Shown: positions 10,842-23,589 of the stretch, in pieces
How the letters are laid out: every line of letters begins with the position of its first letter
How positions within the stretch are numbered: the stretch's first letter is position 1
DNA from: Endomicrobiia bacterium
Lineage (GTDB): Bacteria; Elusimicrobiota; Endomicrobiia; DTEH01
Direction: 5' to 3'
NCBI GenBank assembly: GCA_039630545.1
Contig: JBCNUU010000003.1
Location: forward strand, 34,582 to 98,581
Length of the DNA: 64,000 nucleotides
The notes under the pieces: model-generated
Database searches by the model: none
What the model saw: only the letters and a program-made list of their open reading frames with translations
What the model was told of the DNA's origin: nothing
Translations under genes and position numbers: made by a program

Positions 10842-11525
10842 ATGGAAAAAAAAATAGTAGCAGTTGTTGATGATGAAGAGGATATCCTGGAGTTAATTAA
10901 GGTTAATCTAACAAAGGAAGGGTTTGAAGTTCATTGTTTTGATACTCCAAAAAAATTTTTTAACTTCATACAGCAAAGAATACCTGATTTAGTAATATTA
11001 GATATAATGCTTCCAGGTATAGATGGTTTTGAAATTTGTAAAAAAATAAAATCCGACGCAAAACTAAACAATGTTCCTGTAATATTTCTTTCAGCAAAAT
11101 CAGATGAAGTAGATAAAGTTGTGGGTTTAGAGTTAGGTGCAGACGATTATATCACAAAGCCGTTTTCTGTAAGGGAGCTAATTGCTCGTGTAAAAACAGT
11201 TTTAAGAAGACAGCAGACAAAACAAAAAGAGAAGTTGATAAAAATTGGCAATATTTTAGTTATTAATCCAGATACATACGAAGTCTTTGTTGAAGGAGAA
11301 AAAGTTGAACTTACCACAACAGAATTTAAGTTACTCCTAGTTCTTGCAGAAAATAAAAATAAAGTTTTCACAAGGGACCAACTTCTTGATTACCTCTGGG
11401 GCACTCAAAAAGCAGTTTTGGACAGAACAATAGATGTACATATCACACACCTACGAGAAAAACTTAAAAAAGCAGCCAGTTTTATAAAAAATGTTCGTGG
11501 AGTTGGATACAAAATTTCAGAATAG
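10842..11525 (+). CDS. phoB: OmpR/PhoB-family response regulator (PhoB/PhoP)
   Basis: Receiver VDD..LDIMLP..KPF plus winged helix (RTIDVHI..RGVGY); near pst operon. Confidence 0.85.
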   Translation: MEKKIVAVVDDEEDILELIKVNLTKEGFEVHCFDTPKKFFNFIQQRIPDLVILDIMLPGIDGFEICKKIKSDAKLNNVPVIFLSAKSDEVDKVVGLELGADDYITKPFSVRELIARVKTVLRRQQTKQKEKLIKIGNILVINPDTYEVFVEGEKVELTTTEFKLLLVLAENKNKVFTRDQLLDYLWGTQKAVLDRTIDVHITHLREKLKKAASFIKNVRGVGYKISE

Positions 11526-11543: not shown

Positions 11544-12791
11544 ATGAATTTTGTTGAGGATACTTTAAAGTTGTTAATTTTTGGAATTTTAGCGATTGGT
11601 TTAGTTGTGGTTTTTTTGATTTTTAAACTTTACTCTATAAAAAAATTTCTAAAAAAGCTTATCTTAGCAATCCAAAAAGTAGCAAAAAAAAATTTTGATA
11701 TAAACTTGCCTTCTCAAGGTGACTCAGAAATAAAAAGTTTGATTGAAAATTTTAATTTTATGGTTTCTGAAATAAAAAATGCAATGGAGGAAATTTCTTA
11801 TGAAAAAGATCGACTTAAAAAAATATTTTCTTCAATACAAGAAGCAGTAGTTTTACTTGATACTGAAGGACGTATTCTATTATACAACGATAAGTTCAAG
11901 AAGCTCTGTAAAGTTTCTCCTGAGAATAGACACTATTTAGAGGTTTTGATTTCTTCTGAGTTTAATGAGTTAATTAAAAAAGTTCTTACCACACAAAAAA
12001 ATATAATTCAAGAAATAGAAATTTCTTTTGATACTTATCTTTGTAGTGTTAGTTTCGTTTCAGAAAAAGAGTTAGTGGTTTTATTTTATAATATCACACA
12101 GCACAAAGCCCTTCAGAGTATAAAAAAAGAGTTAGTTTTAAACATAATTCACGAACTAAAAACGCCACTAACAAGCATTAAAGGATTTTCAGAAACCCTA
12201 TATGAGGAGATAAAAGATAAAACTTATAGAAATTACTTAGAGATTATACTTTCTAACACAGACAGATTAATTCGTATAATAAACGAGCTTACTTTACTTT
12301 CTCAAATAGAGCACAAAGAAGTAAATCTTGAACTTGAAGATGTAAATCTTCCAGAAGTTTTAAATACAATAAAAAATCTTTTTGAACACAAAATAAAACA
12401 AAAAAATTTAAACTTTTATTTAGAAATAAAAAAAGATATGAAACCAATCAAAGCCGATAAATTTTTACTTGAGCAGGTTTTAATAAACCTTATAGATAAC
12501 TCTATAAGATATACAGAAAAAGGATACATAAAAGTGTCTGTAACACAAGATCACTCAAATACATTCATACAAGTAGAAGATACAGGAATAGGAATACCTA
12601 AAGAGTATCACCAGAGAGTTTTTGAGAGGTTTTTCGTAGTAGACAAAGCCCGTTCAAGACAGACAGGTGGAACTGGTCTGGGACTTTCTATAGTAAAACA
12701 CATAGTAGAGATTCACAAAGGAGAAATTTTTTTGGAAAGCCAGGTAGGTGTAGGTACAAAGTTTACGGTGGTACTGAATAATAAAATATAA
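11544..12791 (+). CDS. phoR: PhoR-like sensor histidine kinase (TM-HAMP-PAS-HisKA-HATPase)
   Basis: HELKTPLT H-box; FERFFVVDKARSR..GGTGLGLSIVKH. Confidence 0.85.
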   Translation: MNFVEDTLKLLIFGILAIGLVVVFLIFKLYSIKKFLKKLILAIQKVAKKNFDINLPSQGDSEIKSLIENFNFMVSEIKNAMEEISYEKDRLKKIFSSIQEAVVLLDTEGRILLYNDKFKKLCKVSPENRHYLEVLISSEFNELIKKVLTTQKNIIQEIEISFDTYLCSVSFVSEKELVVLFYNITQHKALQSIKKELVLNIIHELKTPLTSIKGFSETLYEEIKDKTYRNYLEIILSNTDRLIRIINELTLLSQIEHKEVNLELEDVNLPEVLNTIKNLFEHKIKQKNLNFYLEIKKDMKPIKADKFLLEQVLINLIDNSIRYTEKGYIKVSVTQDHSNTFIQVEDTGIGIPKEYHQRVFERFFVVDKARSRQTGGTGLGLSIVKHIVEIHKGEIFLESQVGVGTKFTVVLNNKI

Positions 12792-13362: not shown

Positions 13363-13944
13363 ATGATAAAAAAAATAATTTTAATAGTATTGTGTTTTGC
13401 TATCGTTTTTAAAAGTTTTCGTTTAGATCTTTATGCTTCGGATATAAAAAATAAGGCAACAATTGATGCTATAAGAGATGCGGAGTCAGATGTTAAAAAA
13501 CCTTTGTGGTTGCTAGTAGGAGCTATCGGAGGACCTGTGGGTGTGGCTTTTTCTTATTTTCACAAAGATTATCCTTCAGCAACTAGACTTATAGGTAAAC
13601 CACCAGAGTATGTTTTAACTTATCTTGAAGTCTATAGGAAAACTACAAAAAAATTAAAGCTAAAAGCAGCTGTGGCAGGAAGTATTATTGCTTTGATAAC
13701 TTATTTTTATTTGAATAATATCAGTGCCTTAAACACTGGTTGTTTTAATACTTCTCCAGAATGTTCATCTACATGTGCAGGATGTTCTTCTTCATCTATA
13801 GATACTGGATGCAGTTCAGTTGAAGGATGGTCTAATACAGGATGTTCTTCAGGTAGTAGTGGGTGTTCTTCTGGGACCTCGGGAGGTTCAGGAGGTTGTG
13901 CAAGTAGCGGTGGCAGTAGTGGATGTGCTTACATTGGATTTTAA
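13363..13944 (+). CDS. Exported membrane protein with Cys/Ser/Gly-rich C-terminal tail
   Basis: Signal peptide, two hydrophobic segments, tail with 9 Cys in GC(S/A)S-like repeats; AGGAGG RBS. Confidence 0.7.
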   Translation: MIKKIILIVLCFAIVFKSFRLDLYASDIKNKATIDAIRDAESDVKKPLWLLVGAIGGPVGVAFSYFHKDYPSATRLIGKPPEYVLTYLEVYRKTTKKLKLKAAVAGSIIALITYFYLNNISALNTGCFNTSPECSSTCAGCSSSSIDTGCSSVEGWSNTGCSSGSSGCSSGTSGGSGGCASSGGSSGCAYIGF

Positions 13945-14645: not shown

Positions 14646-15824
14646 ATGAAAATAATAACTTTTTTATTTTTAGTATCTTTAGCTATTGCAGAAGAAGACT
14701 TTTTAAGTAAAGATATTTTTCAAAGTTTTACAATTACTGCAATAAAGTTTTATCAAAAAAATATCTCGCCTCTTAAAGTTTCTAGTTGTAGATATACTCC
14801 GAGTTGTTCTAATTATTCACTACAAGCTATAAGAAACTATGGGACAACTATTGGGATATTGATGACAGCAGATAGGCTTCTTAGGTGCAATAGATGGGGT
14901 GAGTGGGGCTATGATCCTCCACAGAAACATTATATATTTGCATCATACAGAGAGGACAAAATATATGAGGGGCTGTTTTATGAAGATGTAAAAAGTGAAT
15001 CTAGTGTTTTTTCTTTCGCAGATAAACTTTTTGAAGAAAAACTTTATGAGGAAGCATTAATTGAATATAAAAGAGTTCTTTTTGAAAATAAAAACTTATC
15101 TTATGATGAGAAATTATTTGGTGAATGGATGGTTGCAATTTGTTACTATAAACTTAAAAAGTATCAAAAAGCTTTAGATATATTTGAAAGTTTATATTCT
15201 AAAATAGAAAATGGACACAACTTAAAACCTAAACTTCTTTTTATTAGAGCTAAAATCTACTATCAACTAAATTCTTTTAGCTTAGCCAGAGAATCATTAG
15301 ATGAAATAGTTAAAATTAGTAAAGACAAAATGGGTGTAATAAAAGCATATATTTTGATAGCTATCTGTTGGCTTGAAGAAGAAAATTTTATTAAAGCTTT
15401 TGAAGTGTTTTCAAATATAGTGGATAAATTCCCAGATATAAAAGAAATACAAAAAATAAGACTTATCAAAGAAGAAATTGCAGAGTTTGAGAAAAAATTT
15501 AATAAGAAATCTAAAGTAGCTGCTGGTATTTTGTCGATTATACCTGGTTTAGGCAAGATTTATGCTGGAAAACCTAAAGACGGTATTTTTACTTTTGGTT
15601 TTATTTCAGCTCTTGGATATCTTTCTTATGAAGGTATAAAAAATGAATTTTATCTTTTTGGTGGGCTTCTTAGTATTTTGACTTTTAATTTTTATTTAGG
15701 TAATATATACGGCGGGATAGATGCTGCTGTTGATTATAATAGAAAAAATGTTTTAGCGTTTAAAGAATATATAAAAAACGAGTTAAAAATTTTTTTTGAA
15801 GATATCTTTTTAGAAAAATTATGA
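14646..15824 (+). CDS. YidD-like domain fused to TPR repeats and a C-terminal TM2-like membrane domain
   Basis: FYQKNISP..CRYTPSCSNY..RLLRC..GYDP (YidD); TPR helices; KSKVAAGILSIIPGLGKIYAG. Confidence 0.75.
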   Translation: MKIITFLFLVSLAIAEEDFLSKDIFQSFTITAIKFYQKNISPLKVSSCRYTPSCSNYSLQAIRNYGTTIGILMTADRLLRCNRWGEWGYDPPQKHYIFASYREDKIYEGLFYEDVKSESSVFSFADKLFEEKLYEEALIEYKRVLFENKNLSYDEKLFGEWMVAICYYKLKKYQKALDIFESLYSKIENGHNLKPKLLFIRAKIYYQLNSFSLARESLDEIVKISKDKMGVIKAYILIAICWLEEENFIKAFEVFSNIVDKFPDIKEIQKIRLIKEEIAEFEKKFNKKSKVAAGILSIIPGLGKIYAGKPKDGIFTFGFISALGYLSYEGIKNEFYLFGGLLSILTFNFYLGNIYGGIDAAVDYNRKNVLAFKEYIKNELKIFFEDIFLEKL

Positions 15825-16831
15825 CAAAAATAATCTGTACGATAGGACCAGCTTCTGAAGACAAAAAAGTTTTGAAAGAAATGATAAAAGCAGGAATGAG
15901 TATGGCAAGAATTAACTTTTCTCACGGGAGTTATGAAGAAATTAAAAGAAGAGTCAACAACATCAAAAAAGTTTCAAAAGTTCTAAAAAAGAAAATCCCT
16001 ATTTTTGCTGACTTACAAGGTCCTAAAATTAGAATTGGTAAAATAAAAAATGATAAGTTATTATTAAATATTGGAGATGAGTTTGTTATTACTACAAAAG
16101 AAATCCAAAAAGATTATAAAGTTAGTGTTGATTACAAGCTGTTGCCAAAATTTGTTAAACCCAAAGATAAAATTTTTATTGATGATGGAAAAATAGAATT
16201 AGAAGTTATTAGAGTAAAAAATGAGGAGATAATATGCAAAGTTGTTGTTGGTGGTGTTGTTTCTTCAAGAAAAGGAATAACTGTGAGGAATAAATTTTTA
16301 CCATTAGATGCAGTTACACAAGAAGATAAAAAAGATATAGAATTTGCTTTGTCTTTAGGTATAACATGGTTTGCTCAGTCGTTTGTAAGAGAAGCTAAAA
16401 ATGTTGAAGAGTTAAAAGAGTATCTTAAAAGCTTAGATAAAACAAAAAAGTTTTTTATCATAGCAAAAATTGAAGATATGTATGGTTACAAAAACATAGA
16501 TGAAATAATAAAAGTTGCTGATGGTGTGATGGTTGCAAGAGGAGATTTGGGTGTGTCTGTTGAACGTGCATTGGTCCCTATACTGCAGAAAGAAATTATA
16601 GAAAAAACCAACAAAGCAAAAAAGTTAGATATAGTTGCTACTCAGATGTTAGAAACAATGGTTGAAAATCCCTATCCTACAAGAGCAGAAGTAAACGATG
16701 TTGCAGTTGCTGTTATGCAGAAAGCTGACTATGTGATGCTTTCAGCAGAAACAGCCGTTGGTAGGTATCCTGTTTTAGCTGTTAAAGAAATGAAAAGAAT
16801 AATAGATGTTGTTGAAAATTATAAAAAATAA
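15821..16831 (+). CDS. pyk: Pyruvate kinase lacking the C-terminal regulatory domain
   Basis: TKIICTIGPAS, NFSHG, IIAKIE, MVARGDLG, PTRAEVND, MLSAETA; ends at 336 aa. Confidence 0.9.
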   Translation: MTKIICTIGPASEDKKVLKEMIKAGMSMARINFSHGSYEEIKRRVNNIKKVSKVLKKKIPIFADLQGPKIRIGKIKNDKLLLNIGDEFVITTKEIQKDYKVSVDYKLLPKFVKPKDKIFIDDGKIELEVIRVKNEEIICKVVVGGVVSSRKGITVRNKFLPLDAVTQEDKKDIEFALSLGITWFAQSFVREAKNVEELKEYLKSLDKTKKFFIIAKIEDMYGYKNIDEIIKVADGVMVARGDLGVSVERALVPILQKEIIEKTNKAKKLDIVATQMLETMVENPYPTRAEVNDVAVAVMQKADYVMLSAETAVGRYPVLAVKEMKRIIDVVENYKK

Positions 16832-16874
16832 AACTCCTTCTAAGTTCCTTGTCTAAACTTAAACTTTCCTTTTC

Positions 16875-16924
16875 TTAACAGAAAATTAATTTTTCGTTTA
16901 TATTTAATTAATACTCCTATTGTA
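16875..16924 (+). promoter_or_regulatory. Pho-box-like array 1 (4 x 11-bp direct repeats) upstream of the sigma factor
   Basis: TTAACAGAAAA/TTAATTTTTCG/TTTATATTTAA/TTAATACTCCT followed by ATTGTA. Confidence 0.7.
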
Positions 16925-16937
16925 TATTTTTTAAAAT

Positions 16938-17459
16938 ATGAAAAATGATCTAAAAAATAACAAATTCGATAAAAAATTTTTTGGTTTAGTTTATGCTATT
17001 GCGTCTAAATATAAAAACAATTTCATAGATTTCGATGATATTCTTCAAGAAGGTTTTTTGGGTCTTTACAAAGCTTGGAAGAAATTTGATAGCTCAAAAG
17101 GAATTCTTTTTTCTACCTATGCTGCTTATTGGATAAAAAAACAAATACTACAATATATAAATATGAATAAAAAACAAAATTTAATTTGTTTTGATGAAGT
17201 TGAACCTCATAAACTATCATATCAAGAAAGTTATTTTATAGAAAATGAAGATAGTACTGTTAATTTTGAGCAAGAGGATTTTTCTGACTTAGAGAAAAAA
17301 ATATTAGATTTAACTTTTAATAAGAAAATAACATTAAAGTTGATTGCTGAAAAAACTAATTTAACAACAGAAAGAGTAAGACAGATTCTCTCCAGAGCAT
17401 TAAGGAAAATAAAAATTAACAAAAAATTAACAGAAAATTTATTAAAAGTTAATCTTTAA
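16938..17459 (+). CDS. Small sigma-70 family factor (regions 2 and 4 only)
   Basis: DDILQEGFLGLYKAWKKFD..FSTYAAYWIK (region 2); TLKLIA..TERVRQILSRALRKI (region 4). Confidence 0.85.
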   Translation: MKNDLKNNKFDKKFFGLVYAIASKYKNNFIDFDDILQEGFLGLYKAWKKFDSSKGILFSTYAAYWIKKQILQYINMNKKQNLICFDEVEPHKLSYQESYFIENEDSTVNFEQEDFSDLEKKILDLTFNKKITLKLIAEKTNLTTERVRQILSRALRKIKINKKLTENLLKVNL

Positions 17460-17465
17460 ATTGTA
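17416..17465 (+). promoter_or_regulatory. Pho-box-like array 2 (4 x 11-bp direct repeats) upstream of porin-pst operon
   Basis: TTAACAAAAAA/TTAACAGAAAA/TTTATTAAAAG/TTAATCTTTAA followed by ATTGTA; same architecture as array 1. Confidence 0.75.
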
Positions 17466-17561
17466 AAAATCAAAAATGCGGGTGAGCAAAGACATACTTG
17501 GTTTTTTTTGATAATTTTTTTATTGCGAAAACTTCAAAAATTTTTAAAAAGGAGGTACAAA

Positions 17562-18827
17562 ATGAAAAAAAATATCAAAAAAATCCTAATTCTCATATTT
17601 TTGTATCTATTTAGTCTGTTTAATAATATAGTTGCACAGAACATTGCAGATCCACTTATAAATAAACTTATAGAAAAAGGAGTAATAGAATCATATGAAG
17701 CCCAGGAGGTAAGAAATGAGATAAGTAAAGTAGAGAAAAAAAAGATTGATGAAGAAAAAGCAAAAGAAGAGGAGCAGAAAAAACAAGATAAGTATAAACT
17801 TAAAACAAGTGGTTATTTACAGTTAGTTTATACTTTAGATGAGTCAACTTCAGCTACAGCACATCCTGGTAAATACAGAGATCCACTCTATATAAGAAGA
17901 GCAAGAATTTCATTTAGACAGCAGATTAATGACTGGGTTGGTTTTAATATAACACCTGAATTTGCAAGAAGTGGAGATCCTTTAGAGACAGAAGACATCT
18001 CAGTTGTTAGAACAACTTCTCCTCATACAACGGCCACTGTAACAAGGGTAAGGAGGGTTCCTGTTATAGAGTTTAAAGGAGCTTATGTGGATTTGACCTT
18101 TAATGATTTTTTGAATTTTAGAATAGGCCAGTTTAATCAGCCTTTTGGTTTTGAAAATGTGTTTTCCTCTAGCAAGAAAATATTTCCAATAGATACTTTA
18201 CAGTTTATGAGAAATGTATTGCCTTCTGATTATGATTTTGGTATACAATACTCTTTAAATTATAAAAAAATGCTTTCTTTGCAAGTAGCAGCCTTGAATG
18301 GAACTACCCATCAGAGAGAGACAAATAACAGAAAAGATATTTCTACCAAAATATCATTTGAACCAAGAATGTTTTTTGAATTCTTAAAAGGTTTTGAGTT
18401 ATCCTTTTCATATTATGATAGATATTATGGAGAGATTGTTACTACTACTGTAACTCCTAAAAATGGTCAACATTACAATGTTTATCTGAAACTTGAAAGA
18501 GAAGTTCTTTTTCCAGTATTTTTAACTGCTGAGTATGTCTGGGGGAAGAATTACACTCTTACTAATGATGTAAAAAGTTTAATTTGTACATTGGAAATAA
18601 AACCCTTAGAAAAAACCTTTCTTAAAGGATTAGCTCCAGCTTTTAGATATGAAAGTTGGGATCCTAACATCAACAAATCAGATGATGAGGTTGAAATATA
18701 TACAGCTGGTATAAATTACTATCCTAATAAGAATGTTAGATTTCTTGTAGACTACAGAATTTCTAATGAAAAACCAAAAGACTTAACAAACAACAAATTA
18801 AACATAATGGCTCAAGTTTCTTTTTGA
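17562..18827 (+). CDS. Phosphate-selective porin (OprO/OprP-like)
   Basis: IRRARI, RIGQFNQPFGFEN, C-terminal QVSF; AGGAGG before ATG 17562; precedes pstS. Confidence 0.75.
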   Translation: MKKNIKKILILIFLYLFSLFNNIVAQNIADPLINKLIEKGVIESYEAQEVRNEISKVEKKKIDEEKAKEEEQKKQDKYKLKTSGYLQLVYTLDESTSATAHPGKYRDPLYIRRARISFRQQINDWVGFNITPEFARSGDPLETEDISVVRTTSPHTTATVTRVRRVPVIEFKGAYVDLTFNDFLNFRIGQFNQPFGFENVFSSSKKIFPIDTLQFMRNVLPSDYDFGIQYSLNYKKMLSLQVAALNGTTHQRETNNRKDISTKISFEPRMFFEFLKGFELSFSYYDRYYGEIVTTTVTPKNGQHYNVYLKLEREVLFPVFLTAEYVWGKNYTLTNDVKSLICTLEIKPLEKTFLKGLAPAFRYESWDPNINKSDDEVEIYTAGINYYPNKNVRFLVDYRISNEKPKDLTNNKLNIMAQVSF

Positions 18828-18852
18828 AACTTAATAAAAGGAGGTATTAACT

Positions 18853-19881
18853 ATGAAAAAATTATTAACAAAATTTCTTGTATCTATATTATCTCTTAAT
18901 CTCTCACTACCTGCTTTTTCACAAAAAATAATTTTAATAAATGGCGCTGGTGCAACTTTCCCATATCCACTTTACTCAAAATGGTTTTATGAATATGCAA
19001 AGATAGATAAAACAGTAAACTTTAATTATCAATCAATAGGTTCAGGTGGTGGTATAAGACAGATTATAGCAAAAACAGTTGATTTTGGTGCTACAGATGC
19101 TGTAATGACAAAAGAACAAGAAAAACAGGCAGGAGAGGAAATACTTCATATACCTATGACTGCAGGAGCTGTTGTTTTAATATATAATGTACCAGAACTA
19201 AAACAGCAGCTAAATCTTTCTGCTGAACTTATATCAGGAATTTTTCTTGGCAAAATCACAAGATGGAATGACAAAAAAATACAGCAAGAAAACCCAGGAG
19301 TAAACTTACCAAATAAAAAAATTATAGTAGCAAGAAGGTCAGATGGTTCAGGAACCACTTTTATATTTACAGATTATCTTTGTGAAGTTTCAAACGAGTG
19401 GAAGTCAAAAGTCGGCAAAGGAACTTCTGTGAACTGGCCTGTTGGTCTTGGTGGTAAGGGTAACGAGGGTGTTGCGGGTATAGTTAAAAACACACCTTAT
19501 TCAATTGGATATGTAGAGATATCTTATGCAATCCAGAATAACTTAAGCTATGCAAAAGTAAAAAATAAAGCAGGCAAATATATAAGTCCATCTGTTGAAG
19601 CAATAACAGCTGCTATAGAAGAGAAGGCAAAAAATATGCCTGCTGACTATAAAGTTTCAATAGTAAATCCAGATGGAGAAAAGGCATATCCTATATGTGG
19701 TTTTACCTGGTTATTAGTATATAAGAAACAACAAGACAAACAAAAAGGAGAAAAATTAGTAAACTTCTTAAAATGGGCTGTCACCGATGGTCAAAAATAC
19801 TGTGCAGATTTAATATATGCTCCACTTCCTGATAATCTTGTAAAAATGGTGCTTGAAACTATAAAAAAAATAGAGTATTAA
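18853..19881 (+). CDS. pstS: Phosphate ABC transporter substrate-binding protein
   Basis: GAGATFPYPLY, GSGGG, RSDGSGTT. Confidence 0.96.
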   Translation: MKKLLTKFLVSILSLNLSLPAFSQKIILINGAGATFPYPLYSKWFYEYAKIDKTVNFNYQSIGSGGGIRQIIAKTVDFGATDAVMTKEQEKQAGEEILHIPMTAGAVVLIYNVPELKQQLNLSAELISGIFLGKITRWNDKKIQQENPGVNLPNKKIIVARRSDGSGTTFIFTDYLCEVSNEWKSKVGKGTSVNWPVGLGGKGNEGVAGIVKNTPYSIGYVEISYAIQNNLSYAKVKNKAGKYISPSVEAITAAIEEKAKNMPADYKVSIVNPDGEKAYPICGFTWLLVYKKQQDKQKGEKLVNFLKWAVTDGQKYCADLIYAPLPDNLVKMVLETIKKIEY

Positions 19882-19918
19882 TAAAGTACTAAAATTTTTA
19901 CTTGTTCTTTTTATTTGG

Positions 19919-19956
19919 GGGTAGCCAGTAAAAGATTGCTGGCTACCCAATTTTTT
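19919..19956 (+). terminator. Stem-loop between pstS and pstC (partial terminator or mRNA stabiliser)
   Basis: GGGTAGCCAGTAA-AAGA-TTGCTGGCTACCC followed by AATTTTTT. Confidence 0.75.
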
Positions 19957-19959
19957 AAT

Positions 19960-20883
19960 ATGAAAAATAAGAATTTTGCAGATAAAACTTTTTTTAGCAT
20001 TACAAGAATAGCATCTATTTTTTGTTTAGTTTTGATAATTCTTTTATTTTTGATGTTAATAAAAGAGTCATTGTTGGCTTTTAATAAATTTGGTTTTAAG
20101 TTTTTTATCAGTAAAGTTTGGGATCCAGTCTTTGAAGAATATGGAGCCTTGCCTTTTATTTATGGCACTGTAGTATCATCTATTTTAGCTATAATTATTT
20201 CTTTCCCATTGTCTTTAGGTATAGCTTTATTTCTTTCAGAATTTGCTGGAAGTAAACTAAAAGAATTTTTAAGCGTTATAATTTCGTTGTTAGCAGGGAT
20301 CCCAAGTGTTATTTATGGATTATGGGGCATATTTGTTTTAGCACCAATTTTAAGAGGTTATGTAGAACCATTTTTACAAAAAATTTTTGGATTTTTACCG
20401 ATTTTTTCAGGTGAACCGTACGGTCTTGATATGTTAGCAGCAGGGATAATTTTAAGTATAATGATAACACCAACAATTTCTTCTATTTCTAAAGATGTTT
20501 TTGAAGCAGTCCCAAGAAGTCTAAGAGAAGCAGCATTAAGTCTAGGCGCTACAAAGTGGGAAATGATAAAAATTTCGGTTTTAAAACCAGCTAAACAGGG
20601 CATAATTGGTGCTGTGATTTTAGGTTTAGGTAGAGCCGTCGGCGAGACTATGGCTGTAACAATGGTGATAGGAAATGTTCATGAGATATCTTTATCTCTT
20701 TTTCATCCTTCAGCAACTTTAGCATCTGTTATAGCAAATGAGTTTGCTGAAGCGACGACTGACTTATATATGTCAAGTTTGTTCACAATAGGTTTAACTT
20801 TGTTTGTTGTTACTATAATGCTAAATATAATAGCAAAGTTTTTAGTGTATTCAACCACTAGAAAATATAAAAAATTGTTATGA
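19960..20883 (+). CDS. pstC: Phosphate ABC transporter permease PstC
   Basis: IPSVIYGLWG, GRAVGETMAV; start moved to ATG after the hairpin. Confidence 0.95.
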   Translation: MKNKNFADKTFFSITRIASIFCLVLIILLFLMLIKESLLAFNKFGFKFFISKVWDPVFEEYGALPFIYGTVVSSILAIIISFPLSLGIALFLSEFAGSKLKEFLSVIISLLAGIPSVIYGLWGIFVLAPILRGYVEPFLQKIFGFLPIFSGEPYGLDMLAAGIILSIMITPTISSISKDVFEAVPRSLREAALSLGATKWEMIKISVLKPAKQGIIGAVILGLGRAVGETMAVTMVIGNVHEISLSLFHPSATLASVIANEFAEATTDLYMSSLFTIGLTLFVVTIMLNIIAKFLVYSTTRKYKKLL

Positions 20884-21713
20884 AGAGAAAAATAGTAGAT
20901 AAATTTATGCAATTTCTTATATATTCTTCTGGTGTAATAATTTGTGGAATTTTACTTTTTATTTTTAGTTATATAGTGATTAAAGGTATAGCTTCTTTGA
21001 ATATAGATTTTTTTATTAGGTTACCAAAACCTGTTGGGGAAAAGGGCGGAGGTATGGTAAATGCTATTGTAGGTAGTTTTATTCTTGTTGGTTTAGCAAG
21101 TTTATGGGCTGTTCCAATAAGTGTGCTTACAGGAATATATCTTGCTGAATTTTCTGATAATAAGAAAGAATCAAAATTTATTTATGTTTTAAGGTTTCTT
21201 TTAGATGTGCTTTCAGGCGTTCCTTCAATAGTTATCGGTATATTTGCTTATAGTTTAATAGTAGTTCCTATGAAGAAGTTTTCTGCTATAGCTGGTGCAT
21301 TTTCGTTAGGTATTATTATGTTACCAGTTATCACAAGGACTACTGAAGAAATGATGAAAATGGTTCCCAGAACCATAAGGGAGGCATCTTTAGGCTTAGG
21401 AATTAGTAATTGGAAAACAGTAGTTTTTGTTATACTAGCCACAGCAAAACCTGGAATAATTACAGGTATACTTTTAGCAGTGGCAAGGATTTTTGGTGAG
21501 ACAGCACCTCTTCTTTTTACCGCTTTTGGTAACAGGTTCTGGCACAGAAGCTTGACGGACCCAATTGCTTCTTTGCCACTTCAGATTTTTGCTTATGCAA
21601 TTTCACCTTATGAAGACTGGCATAGACAGGCATGGGCTGGTGCTTTGGTTTTAATTTTAATAGTTTATTTTATAATTTTAATCAGTAGAAAAATTCTACT
21701 TAAATATAAATAG
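20880..21713 (+). CDS. pstA: Phosphate ABC transporter permease PstA
   Basis: [19 protein letters not shown]. Confidence 0.95.
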
Positions 21714-21739
21714 CTCTTTTGTCTTATCATGGAGGATAT

Positions 21740-22501
21740 ATGGAAGAAGTTAAAGTTGAAATTAAAAACTTGTATGCTTGGTATGGACCACAGGAAGTGT
21801 TAAAAAATATTTCTTTATCAATATACAAAAACAAAGTTACTGCAATTATAGGGCCATCTGGTTGTGGTAAATCGACATTGATAAGGTGTATAAATCGTCT
21901 TCATGAGGTAGTTCCGAATGCAAAGGTTAAAGGAGAGATAATTTTAGATGGCAAAAACATATATGATGCAGATGTCGATCCGATGGATGTAAGGAGAAAA
22001 GTTGGTATGGTTTTTCAACAGCCAAATCCTTTCCCAACGATGACAATTTTTGACAATGTTGCAATAGGACTTAAGTTAAATGGTATAAGAAATAAATCTG
22101 TTATTGCAGAAACAGTAAAAACTGCTTTAGAAGAAGCTGGTCTTTATGCCGAGGTTGCACATAAGCTTTATAGCTATGGCACACATCTTTCTGGTGGGCA
22201 GCAGCAAAGGCTGTGCATTGCAAGAACACTGGCTTTGAAACCAGAGGTGATTTTGTTTGATGAACCATGTTCTGCGTTAGATCCTATATCTACAGCAAAA
22301 ATAGAAGAACTAATAGTAGAGCTTAAAAAAAATCATACAATAATAATAGTAACTCATAATCTTCAACAAGCAGCAAGAGTTTCTGACTATACAGCATTTC
22401 TTTACTTAGGAGAACTTATAGAATATGGACCTACTCATTCAATTTTTACTGCACCAAAAATGAAGAAAACAGAAGAGTATATAATGGGAAGATTTGGATA
22501 A
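21740..22501 (+). CDS. pstB: Phosphate ABC transporter ATP-binding protein
   Basis: [38 protein letters not shown] before ATG 21740. Confidence 0.96.
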
Positions 22502-22506
22502 TTATT

Positions 22507-22920
22507 ATGAGAAAAAAAGTTTTATTTATATGTACACATAATTCTAACAGATCTCAGATTGCAGAAGCATTGCTTAATCATTTATATCCAGAAAAATACG
22601 AGGCATATAGTGCTGGAACCCAACCATCAAAAGTAAATGAATACGCAGTAACGGTCTTGAAAGAAATAGGTATTGATATAAGCAAAAGTAGATCAAAACA
22701 TATAGACGAATTTAAAAATGAAGTTTTTGATTATGTAGTAACAGTTTGTGATTCAGCAAAAGAAACCTGTCCTTTTTTTCCAAATGCAAAGGAGTTCATA
22801 CATAAAAGTTTTTGCGATCCGACAGAATATGTTGGTCCAAACGATGAAAAGTTAGAAAAATTTAGAACCTTAAGGGAAGAAATTAAAAAATTTATAATTG
22901 AAAAATTTGGGAGGGAATAA
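22507..22920 (+). CDS. arsC: Arsenate reductase (LMW-PTP/thioredoxin-coupled type)
   Basis: CTHNSNRSQ P-loop plus TVCD..ETCP redox cysteines. Confidence 0.85.
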   Translation: MRKKVLFICTHNSNRSQIAEALLNHLYPEKYEAYSAGTQPSKVNEYAVTVLKEIGIDISKSRSKHIDEFKNEVFDYVVTVCDSAKETCPFFPNAKEFIHKSFCDPTEYVGPNDEKLEKFRTLREEIKKFIIEKFGRE

Positions 22921-23589
22921 ATGCTTGAAGAAAAAATTTCAAAATTAAAAAATCAAATTATTGAATACTCAAATCTAATAATTGATATGTTTAGTGATTC
23001 TTTGAGATCTATTTTTTCTACCAATAAAGAAAATCTACAAGAGATAATAAAGGAAAAAGAAGTTAAAGCAAATGAATACGAGATTGAGTTAGAGGAGAAG
23101 TGTATATATGTAATTGCTCAATATGAGCCAAAAGCTTTTGATTTAAGATTTATTCTTTCAGTTTTGAAAATGACAAATGATTTAGAAAGGATGGGAGATC
23201 ATATTGTGAATATTTCACAGAGTGGTGTTTTTCTTATGGAACATAACAAAGCTTTAATTTCAGAATATAAAATAGATATTGAGAAAATTTTTAATTTGAC
23301 TCATAATATGTTTACAGAAAGTATAACTTCGTTTATAGAAGAAAATCCTATAGCAGCAAAAAAACTCTGCGAGTTAGATCAACAAGTAGATGATCTAAAA
23401 AAACAAATTTATAGAAAGATAATAGAAGACATCAAAACAAATCCTAAAGATATTGAAGATTATATTCATCTTGAGCGCATAATAAATAATATAGAACGCA
23501 TAGCAGACCTTACTACGAATATCTGTGAAGATATTATTTTTCTTTACGAGGCAAGAATTATTAAACACCACAGAGATGAAAAACTTTAA
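22921..23589 (+). CDS. phoU: Phosphate signalling protein PhoU
   Basis: Duplicated ER(M/I)xD motifs (DLERMGDH, IERIADL). Confidence 0.93.
   Translation: MLEEKISKLKNQIIEYSNLIIDMFSDSLRSIFSTNKENLQEIIKEKEVKANEYEIELEEKCIYVIAQYEPKAFDLRFILSVLKMTNDLERMGDHIVNISQSGVFLMEHNKALISEYKIDIEKIFNLTHNMFTESITSFIEENPIAAKKLCELDQQVDDLKKQIYRKIIEDIKTNPKDIEDYIHLERIINNIERIADLTTNICEDIIFLYEARIIKHHRDEKL

Follow-up and report, generated by a model that had tools for sequence, protein, structure and literature searches.

A short RpoD-like sigma factor linked to phoBR and pst genes: a candidate PhoB partner at Pho-box promoters

Introduction

Activation by PhoB together with the housekeeping sigma factor is exemplified above all by the pst operon, and the PhoP boxes of Bacillus subtilis have a layout of four units from about -60 to -23. 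We have analysed a 64,000-nucleotide (nt) stretch of DNA from an Endomicrobiia bacterium (contig JBCNUU010000003.1; referred to here as the window), in which one box with a similar layout precedes, and a second overlaps the end of, a gene for a 173-aa sigma factor at the head of a phosphate-uptake cluster. From sequence comparisons, we consider it probable that this small sigma is a partner of PhoB that reads the Pho-box promoters themselves, and is not a regulatory tier with separate targets.

Pho boxes are defined by 11-bp direct repeats (PMC4415409), and the cyanobacterial unit is given as CTTAACCT (PMC1906773). The TTAAC unit of the window resembles this cyanobacterial unit. The arrays described here are like PhoB, PhoP and SphR boxes in their 11-bp repeats, in their fixed distance to the -10 box and in their location ahead of porin-pstSCAB-phoU. 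They differ from such boxes used with a housekeeping sigma in that an extra sigma gene is present in the cluster, the -10 box is shifted to G-TA(T)A, and T-7 is optional.

In Pseudomonas aeruginosa, PhoB induces the extracytoplasmic function (ECF) sigma VreI and is also needed for binding of VreI to its targets, and VreI does not bind to its own promoter (PMC4971064). The VreI system (PUMA3, vreAIR) is similar to the present locus, as judged here from sequence, in that a small two-domain sigma is encoded under a pho box. It differs in that VreI is an ECF sigma encoded in an operon with a receptor and an anti-sigma, and controls virulence genes, and in that its pho box is located upstream of a -35 element, whereas the box covers the -35 zone here (PMC4971064 for VreI). 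Also, the family described here is closest to RpoD/SigA and forms part of the core phoBR-pst cluster, and no anti-sigma adjoins the sigma gene of the window. A different second regulator below or beside PhoB is PtrA of Synechococcus WH8102, which forms a second phosphate tier with PhoB but belongs to the CRP family and is not a sigma (PMC4415409). The sequence-only reading of our locus knew of no second tier in Pho regulons, but the VreI (PMC4971064) and PtrA (PMC4415409) reports describe such tiers. The general PhoB-to-sigma scheme is already known; this family, at the pst operon, is new as far as we found. A literature search, made mostly without subscription journals, found no publication on the family or on a PhoB-sigma link at pst, and supplementary sigma classifications could list it.

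Two Pho-box arrays and their predicted promoters

All features discussed are on the + strand. Array 1 (16875..16912), predicted to extend from -60 to -23, consists of units TTAAC, TTAAT, TTTAT and TTAAT starting at 16875, 16886, 16897 and 16908, and array 2 (17416..17453) of units TTAAC, TTAAC, TTTAT and TTAAT starting at 17416, 17427, 17438 and 17449. The arrays are identical at 32 of 50 positions, and in both, as the sequence-only reading had it, ATTGTA follows 44 bp after unit 1. As a shared element, however, this hexamer was reduced to its last part. A weight matrix was trained on 30 unique sites taken from other genomes and chosen on the four units alone, so that unit conservation is by construction; GTA, in columns outside the selection criteria, was found at +47 to +49 from unit 1 in 30 of the 30. 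We assign this GTA, 47 bp after unit 1, to positions -13/-12/-11, the start of the -10 box. The predicted boxes, each with G(-13), are G TATATT for the sigma promoter (16922..16928; predicted start 16935) and G TAAAAA, without T-7, for the porin-pst promoter (17463..17469; predicted start 17476). Neither promoter has TTGACA, and the Pho box occupies the -35 zone.

In the 1.6-Mb genome of the window (G000), the matrix gave 2 sites above 14 bits, namely the two arrays at 46.1 and 40.4 bits, versus 0.3 sites per genome in ten locally shuffled genomes (maximum 23 bits). We regard the arrays as ordinary PhoB-type boxes, to which binding of the regulator is predicted. A matrix of the units only gave one extra G000 site, just beyond the window (G000:C23:100181, or L174:2182; 20.8 bits, with 0 above 18 in the null), where GTATAAA stands 1 bp closer than in the arrays. 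This box precedes a gene for a 779-aa fusion of PHP and glycosyltransferase-4 domains, and a matching gene starts after a box in G006 and G182; the gene may serve in lipid remodelling during phosphate starvation.

The predicted start at 16935 is 3 nt to the 5' side of the sigma ATG, which lacks a Shine-Dalgarno motif. Among 18 loci, the ATG is located at +58 to +66 of unit 1 in 14, and a Shine-Dalgarno-like word in none (0/18); in most loci, a start at +60 would leave a gap of 0-6 nt to the ATG of the sigma. These observations support the assignment of the -10 box, and the spacing suggests that the sigma message is leaderless.

Linkage of the sigma family to phosphate genes

The linkage to phosphate genes seen for the window sigma recurs among its homologs, the closest of which are labelled Elusimicrobiota/Endomicrobia. 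A genome survey gave 80 loci, and the best 21, six of them repeat loci, encode short family proteins from Elusimicrobia/Endomicrobia, Omnitrophota, Desulfobacteraceae, Acidobacteria, Cloacimonadota, WOR-3 and others. Eighteen of these 21 loci carry phoB, phoR, pst or porin genes, and the array is present at the remaining 3. Among the 59 lower-ranked loci, one (L069) has a broken sigma copy with phoBR and arrays, and pstS, pstC, pstA, phoU and porin had no match at 58/58 of the remainder. Similarly, 22 of 26 family loci from metagenomes are linked, 16 with arrays, as is 1 of 54 others, a fragment beside phoBR.

Of 151 Cloacimonadota genomes, 110 have an intact, full sigma, 109 a phoB match, 106 both and 38 neither, so that 38 of the 42 genomes lacking a phoB match also lack the sigma. 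There are 98 sigma-phoB pairs within 5 kb, and in 95 the sigma is encoded downstream of phoB, in the same direction; 28 of the 30 best Cloacimonadota loci have phoR or other pho genes alongside. Elsewhere the sigma is patchy (10/122 genomes of the window's class, 0/89 of family f4 and 1/201 of the phylum of G455). After clustering at 50%, 89 short representatives score at least 117 bits, two of which group with longer sigmas; the median family length is 170 aa. In the Atlas, three clusters with generic names were matched, and Cloacimonadota and Omnitrophota are foremost among their members. Among 80 viral-contig matches, we saw no phage-borne sigma family; the one close match (L312, IMG/VR), located directly after a C-terminal piece of phoB, is probably on host DNA.

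Linkage of the sigma family and its co-occurrence with phoB are evident, and we take the family to be inherited together with phoBR. Both also bear on the idea of a neutral passenger, a sigma in decay that is carried along by the pho cluster. The patchy occurrence in Elusimicrobiota would agree with that idea, as would broken copies in L069 and in G019, the latter with the start of region 2 fused directly to region 4 sequence (L154:2728-3030), an internally deleted pseudogene with both boxes kept. Yet the gene is intact through most of Cloacimonadota and mostly missing where phoB is missing, and residues are strongly conserved at 30-55% overall identity. Conservation has already largely refuted the idea, which we hold to be highly improbable.

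Box promoters with and without the small sigma

In 122 genomes of the window's class, the four-unit pattern matched 82 times, in 51 genomes, whereas the reversed control matched 3 times. Fifty-eight sites are in 40 genomes where the sigma was not found, which is not equivalent to absent, as part of these assemblies are incomplete (G006 and G007 have phoB). Many of the boxes fetched from these relatives are located after phoR and before porin or pstS. The 4x11-bp array is therefore not special to the sigma. Of 49 homolog genes inspected, 15 have the array on their upstream side. Arrays were matched in 54 Cloacimonadota genomes, 52 of them with the sigma. We considered the odd third unit (YTTAT) as a -35 element for the new sigma and rejected this, since it is present in sigma-negative genomes (the pattern required YTTAT). 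The base after the third unit is A in 17 of 22 sites in sigma genomes versus 14 of 58 without.

The -10 boxes do differ with presence of the sigma. For the window's class, with the two G019 sites set aside because of the deleted sigma copy, we observed G-13 in 20/22, A-9 in 21/22 and T-7 in 17/22 sites of sigma genomes, versus 32/58, 23/58 and 55/58, respectively, in genomes without it (T-7 in 39/39 perfect matches); GTATA occurs in 16/22 versus 2/58. Outside f1, the window's family, G-13 and T-7 are found in 9/11 and 8/11 sites with the sigma and in 31/57 and 54/57 without. For sigma-associated sites, G-13 and T-7 number 18/18 and 5/18 in other phyla, 23/24 and 8/24 in metagenomes, and 61/70 and 37/70 in Cloacimonadota; the last counts were made by eye on every row, including some six that resemble unrelated repeats. 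Neither box of G302 or of G456 has T-7. The upstream boxes of G123 and G170 have RpoD-type -10 sequences (C TATGCT and A TATCAT), and their downstream boxes have G-13.

As a control, we counted housekeeping promoters as TTGAC(A/T)-17-TA-nnn-T versus non-T, against reversed patterns. The T/non-T counts were 242/162 versus 93/202 reversed in G123, 144/164 versus 115/288 in G304, 80/65 versus 38/74 in G302, 144/77 versus 72/138 in G030, which has no sigma, and 77/117 versus 60/119 in G000. A stricter pattern gave 27/24 versus 18/38 in G349, 37/33 versus 13/34 in G456, 20/28 versus 15/31 in G402, 3/7 versus 4/12 in G328 and 3/14 versus 0/8 in G332. Enrichment of T-7 is at least 2-fold in 5 of the 8 genomes outside f1 that have the sigma. 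In 24 of 27 RpoD sequences, region 2 has the motifs N(L/F/V)RLV and WWIRQ, and it is canonical in 7 of those 8 genomes, the ones for which RpoD was read. A k-mer search for the G000 housekeeping promoter was too noisy and was set aside.

Several observations weigh against a role of the small sigma at these promoters. Housekeeping enrichment of T-7 is weak in G402 and G328 and was not seen in G332, and in the window's family T-7 is at background level. The RpoD of the window's family is itself divergent, with S or G at the R385 position (G000, G001, G005) and HWWIRQ, as also in L301 and L025. TTGACA promoters with GTA and non-T-7 number 5-7 per genome in 5/5 window-family genomes, sigma present or not (controls 0-6), and 0-3 in five other genomes (0 in G304, 0 in G302, 3 in G123). 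RpoD could therefore read both arrays in G000, where the -10 signature is not diagnostic; it is the other lineages that make the case for the small sigma. G-13 is also common without the sigma (the 32/58 above), roughly half of the sites in genomes with the sigma retain T-7 and could be read by RpoD, and sites and genomes are phylogenetically clustered, so that Fisher p-values for the -10 comparison and for sigma/phoB co-occurrence overstate. Finally, the sigma is dispensable, since the same boxes are in use in forty relatives for which we found no such sigma. Loss of the R385 arginine in the window-family RpoD is a parallel case in which such a loss again accompanies relaxed T-7.

Some of these points would fit shared use, in which RpoD and the small sigma both read the boxes, the sigma acts as a booster when RpoD holoenzyme is scarce, and the -10 differences are partly lineage drift. 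T-7 is kept in 12 of 21 downstream boxes, the window-family RpoD tolerates non-T at -7, and the sigma has been lost repeatedly, including the G019 copy whose boxes remain. However, the boxes of G302 and G456 lack T-7 though housekeeping promoters in these genomes favour it, and we think shared use decidedly unlikely.

Four further observations concern arrays and promoters in relatives. In f4 genomes without the sigma (L151:3427, L152:3320, L149:3101), a second box is located between pstS and pstC, and in L151 and L152 the pstC ATG coincides with the predicted start of the box promoter. In one genome of the phylum, G042, a loose four-unit pattern gave 33 matches versus 0 in the control, representing a large regulon or a repeat. 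Three Cloacimonadota genomes contain a different 11-bp tandem unit, TTAATCAAG-like and without a GTA box (G367:C16:27646, G314:C18:20301, G423:C4:31674). Window-family TTGACA-17 promoters are rich in G-13, with or without the small sigma.

Class and conserved residues of the sigma protein

The sigma gene (16938..17459) encodes 173 aa with matches to Pfam Sigma70_r2 (PF04542, 63 bits) and Sigma70_r4 (PF04545, 43.5 bits) and to TIGR02937 above cut-off; a Pfam scan of the protein gave no match for regions 1.2 or 3. The predicted structure has two helical domains joined by a disordered linker, with low confidence for the last 20 residues. The top 60 solved-structure matches are group 1-3 sigmas, with RpoD/SigA best (E 5e-35), and a fold search gave generic sigma matches only, at a TM of about 0.34. 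ECF-type Sigma70_r4_2 scored 12.9 bits, below cut-off, although some relatives do carry r4_2. The earlier description of a sigma with regions 2 and 4, lacking region 3 and not ECF-looking, agrees with these Pfam and structure matches. By the same matches, the protein belongs to the sigma-70 family, is closest to RpoD/SigA, and is ECF-like only in its length and two-region layout (~170-200 aa in ECFs) and not in sequence. Nor does it carry the group 1 set of regions 1.2 and 3 with W433/W434, Q437 and R441. The same genome encodes a separate RpoD of 574 aa (G000:C23:173792-175513). Like RpoD/SigA, the family keeps core region 2 (2.1-2.3 motifs) and a 4.2 helix with the RpoD-like R-E-R-x-R-Q; unlike RpoD/SigA, it is short (~170 aa), has no regions 1.1, 1.2 and 3, and has replacements at W433, Q437 and R441.

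Across 1002 primary sigmas, W433/W434, Q437 and R441 do not vary; substitutions at Q437 affect -12 recognition, and loss of the W dyad is typical of alternative sigmas (PMC4593229). Among 144 family sequences, counted with duplicates included, the Q437 position is K in 133, the W433 position Y or F in 135, and the W434 position W in 131; the R441 position is lost and variable. Positions N383 and R385, which we take to line the T-7 pocket, are mostly Y (91/144) and mostly P (75/144), and the E591 position is K or R in 134. Region 2.1 is remodelled, and region 2.2 is retained.

A tree of regions 2 and 4 placed group 1/2 sigmas behind one edge (0.90), with the longer family members P0123 and P0165 among them, and ECFs of G000 on a very long branch. 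Neither this tree nor another, in which most outgroups were lost, rooted the family or showed its monophyly or direction of descent. A complex prediction for the PhoB effector domain with sigma region 4 scored 0.01 (mark 0.32) and weighs neither way. We found no co-encoded anti-sigma beside the window sigma, and annotated neighbours elsewhere are phoR and porin or pst genes, unannotated neighbours being outside this screen.

Another conceivable function is negative regulation: by binding to core polymerase or to PhoB, the protein would dampen the Pho response, and all box promoters would be read by RpoD. Absence of regions 1.2 and 3 and of the W dyad may weaken promoter melting (PMC4593229), and relatives without the sigma keep an intact Pho system. 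But such a decoy leaves unexplained both the relaxed T-7 at boxes in genomes with the sigma and a canonical RpoD, and the near-invariant K at the Q437 position; we judge negative regulation to be unlikely.

The retained R-E-R-x-R-Q residues of region 4.2 could read a TTGACA-like -35. They would thus permit a classical second tier, in which PhoB with RpoD induces the sigma, which then transcribes separate genes from promoters without Pho boxes. The gene is found under a Pho box or at the end of the phoBR operon almost everywhere, and PtrA is a precedent (PMC4415409). However, the altered -10 signature is found at the Pho-box promoters themselves, and TTGACA promoters with a GTA/non-T -10 are few or none in G304, G302 and G123 by the counts above, in a scan that a regulon with another -35 would escape. 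The zero counts in G304 and G302, together with only 3 boxes in G000, give no sign of a separate regulon, and we find this arrangement rather unlikely. Of the PhoB-to-sigma cascade first proposed for the locus, the Pho-box arrays and the phoBR/pst linkage are retained, and the separate downstream regulon gives way to action at Pho-box promoters, which the evidence favours.

A promoter within the sigma tail

Array 2 overprints the last ~14 codons of the window sigma. Of 49 sigma genes, 21 have a downstream array, and 15 of these arrays overlap the open reading frame (ORF); 12 of the 21 begin exactly 46 nt after the ERVRQ codon. In 11 of those 12 that we laid out, the tail Asn is AAC in 11/11 and both Leu are TTA in 11/11, whereas the bodies of the same genes use AAC for 87 of 288 Asn and TTA for 204 of 703 Leu. 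The array is intact in L039, where the gene is frame-shifted, and in L027, where it stops inside the array; in L042, L043, L220, L228 and L231 the array is wholly past the stop codon. Where the array is lost (L037, L041 and most Cloacimonadota), the tail sequence is free. We considered the conserved tail INxxLTxxLxxxN as a protein feature and rejected it, the codon bias and array offset pointing to promoter DNA. On this evidence, the sigma tail is best read as a promoter translated as codons, and the suggestion that the sigma 3' end doubles as the pst promoter stands.

Proposed mechanism

If the small sigma is a PhoB partner at Pho-box promoters, the following steps would be the most likely. 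In phosphate starvation, PhoR would phosphorylate PhoB, and two PhoB dimers would occupy each four-unit box. At the sigma gene and at the porin-pst-phoU operon, phosphorylated PhoB would then bring polymerase with the small sigma to the G-TA(T)A -10 box, and this polymerase would open the GTA box. With no TTGACA in the promoters and the -35 zone taken up by the box, the sigma would need PhoB, as VreI does. First copies of the sigma could come from housekeeping RpoD or from read-through, since the gene follows phoR directly in most lineages and pyk without a found terminator here, and RpoD-type -10 boxes occur in G123 and G170; the sigma would then amplify its own gene and pst in a positive loop.

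More broadly, we give about even chances to the proposal that the family is a separate sigma-70 class, an RpoD-like protein cut to regions 2 and 4, that would be the dedicated PhoB partner for the core Pho regulon in Cloacimonadota and scattered phyla, with a co-evolved -10 box (G-13, T-12, A-11, T-7 unneeded), amplifying its own gene and the Pst operon, and with the next promoter inside its last codons in some lineages. If true, an activator would be paired with a private sigma for a core nutrient regulon, phylum-wide and outside the ECF scheme. The family would also be a natural experiment on -10 recognition, in which near-fixed Q437K and a remodelled region 2.1 accompany G-13 and relaxed T-7, and a functional hypothesis would be available for about 90 protein clusters that have no annotation and come from hot springs, digesters and sediments.

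Gene order and other observations at the locus

The gene order is as the sequence-only reading gave it, both for the upstream regulator/kinase pair and from porin to phoU. The PhoB-like response regulator (10842..11525) has Response_reg and Trans_reg_C domains; its top NCBIfam model is PhoB TIGR02154, at 249 bits below the cut-off of 296, and its orthologs, 79-81% identical, adjoin pst genes in L027 and L029. The PhoR-like sensor kinase (11544..12791) has a HAMP-PAS-HisKA-HATPase arrangement, and a homolog is located directly to the 5' side of the sigma in L029, L031, L039, L041 and most Cloacimonadota loci. Downstream of the sigma are a phosphate-selective porin O/P family gene (17562..18827; PF07396) with AGGAGG before its ATG; pstS (18853..19881; PBP_like_2 and gene order); pstC (19915..20883; BPD_transp_1), whose true start codon is possibly further in; pstA (20880..21713; BPD_transp_1); pstB (21719..22501; ABC_tran); an arsC-like gene for an arsenate reductase or low-molecular-weight (LMW) phosphatase (22507..22920; PF01451, with TIGR02691 below cut-off); and phoU (22921..23589; TIGR02135 above cut-off). 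A 26-bp sequence at 17559 has a match elsewhere on the same contig.

The immediate neighbours of the window sigma are the pyruvate kinase gene (pyk), which it follows, and the porin gene; no terminator was found between pyk and the sigma gene. The pyruvate kinase ORF (15821-16831, 336 aa) matches the barrel domain only, with no Pfam match for the C-terminal alpha/beta domain. The runs listed with the locus are three hot-spring DNA metagenomes of one study, which are not independent, and no RNA run is listed. Contigs of the three runs fork at 16833, just past the pyruvate kinase stop, with a minor branch of other sequence at a depth of 4-15 versus 22-135. Given this fork, the sigma after pyk may be absent in part of the strains. 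Between the kinase gene and pyk, an ORF at 13363-13944 encodes 193 aa with a Cys/Ser/Gly-rich C-terminal tail and no Pfam match.

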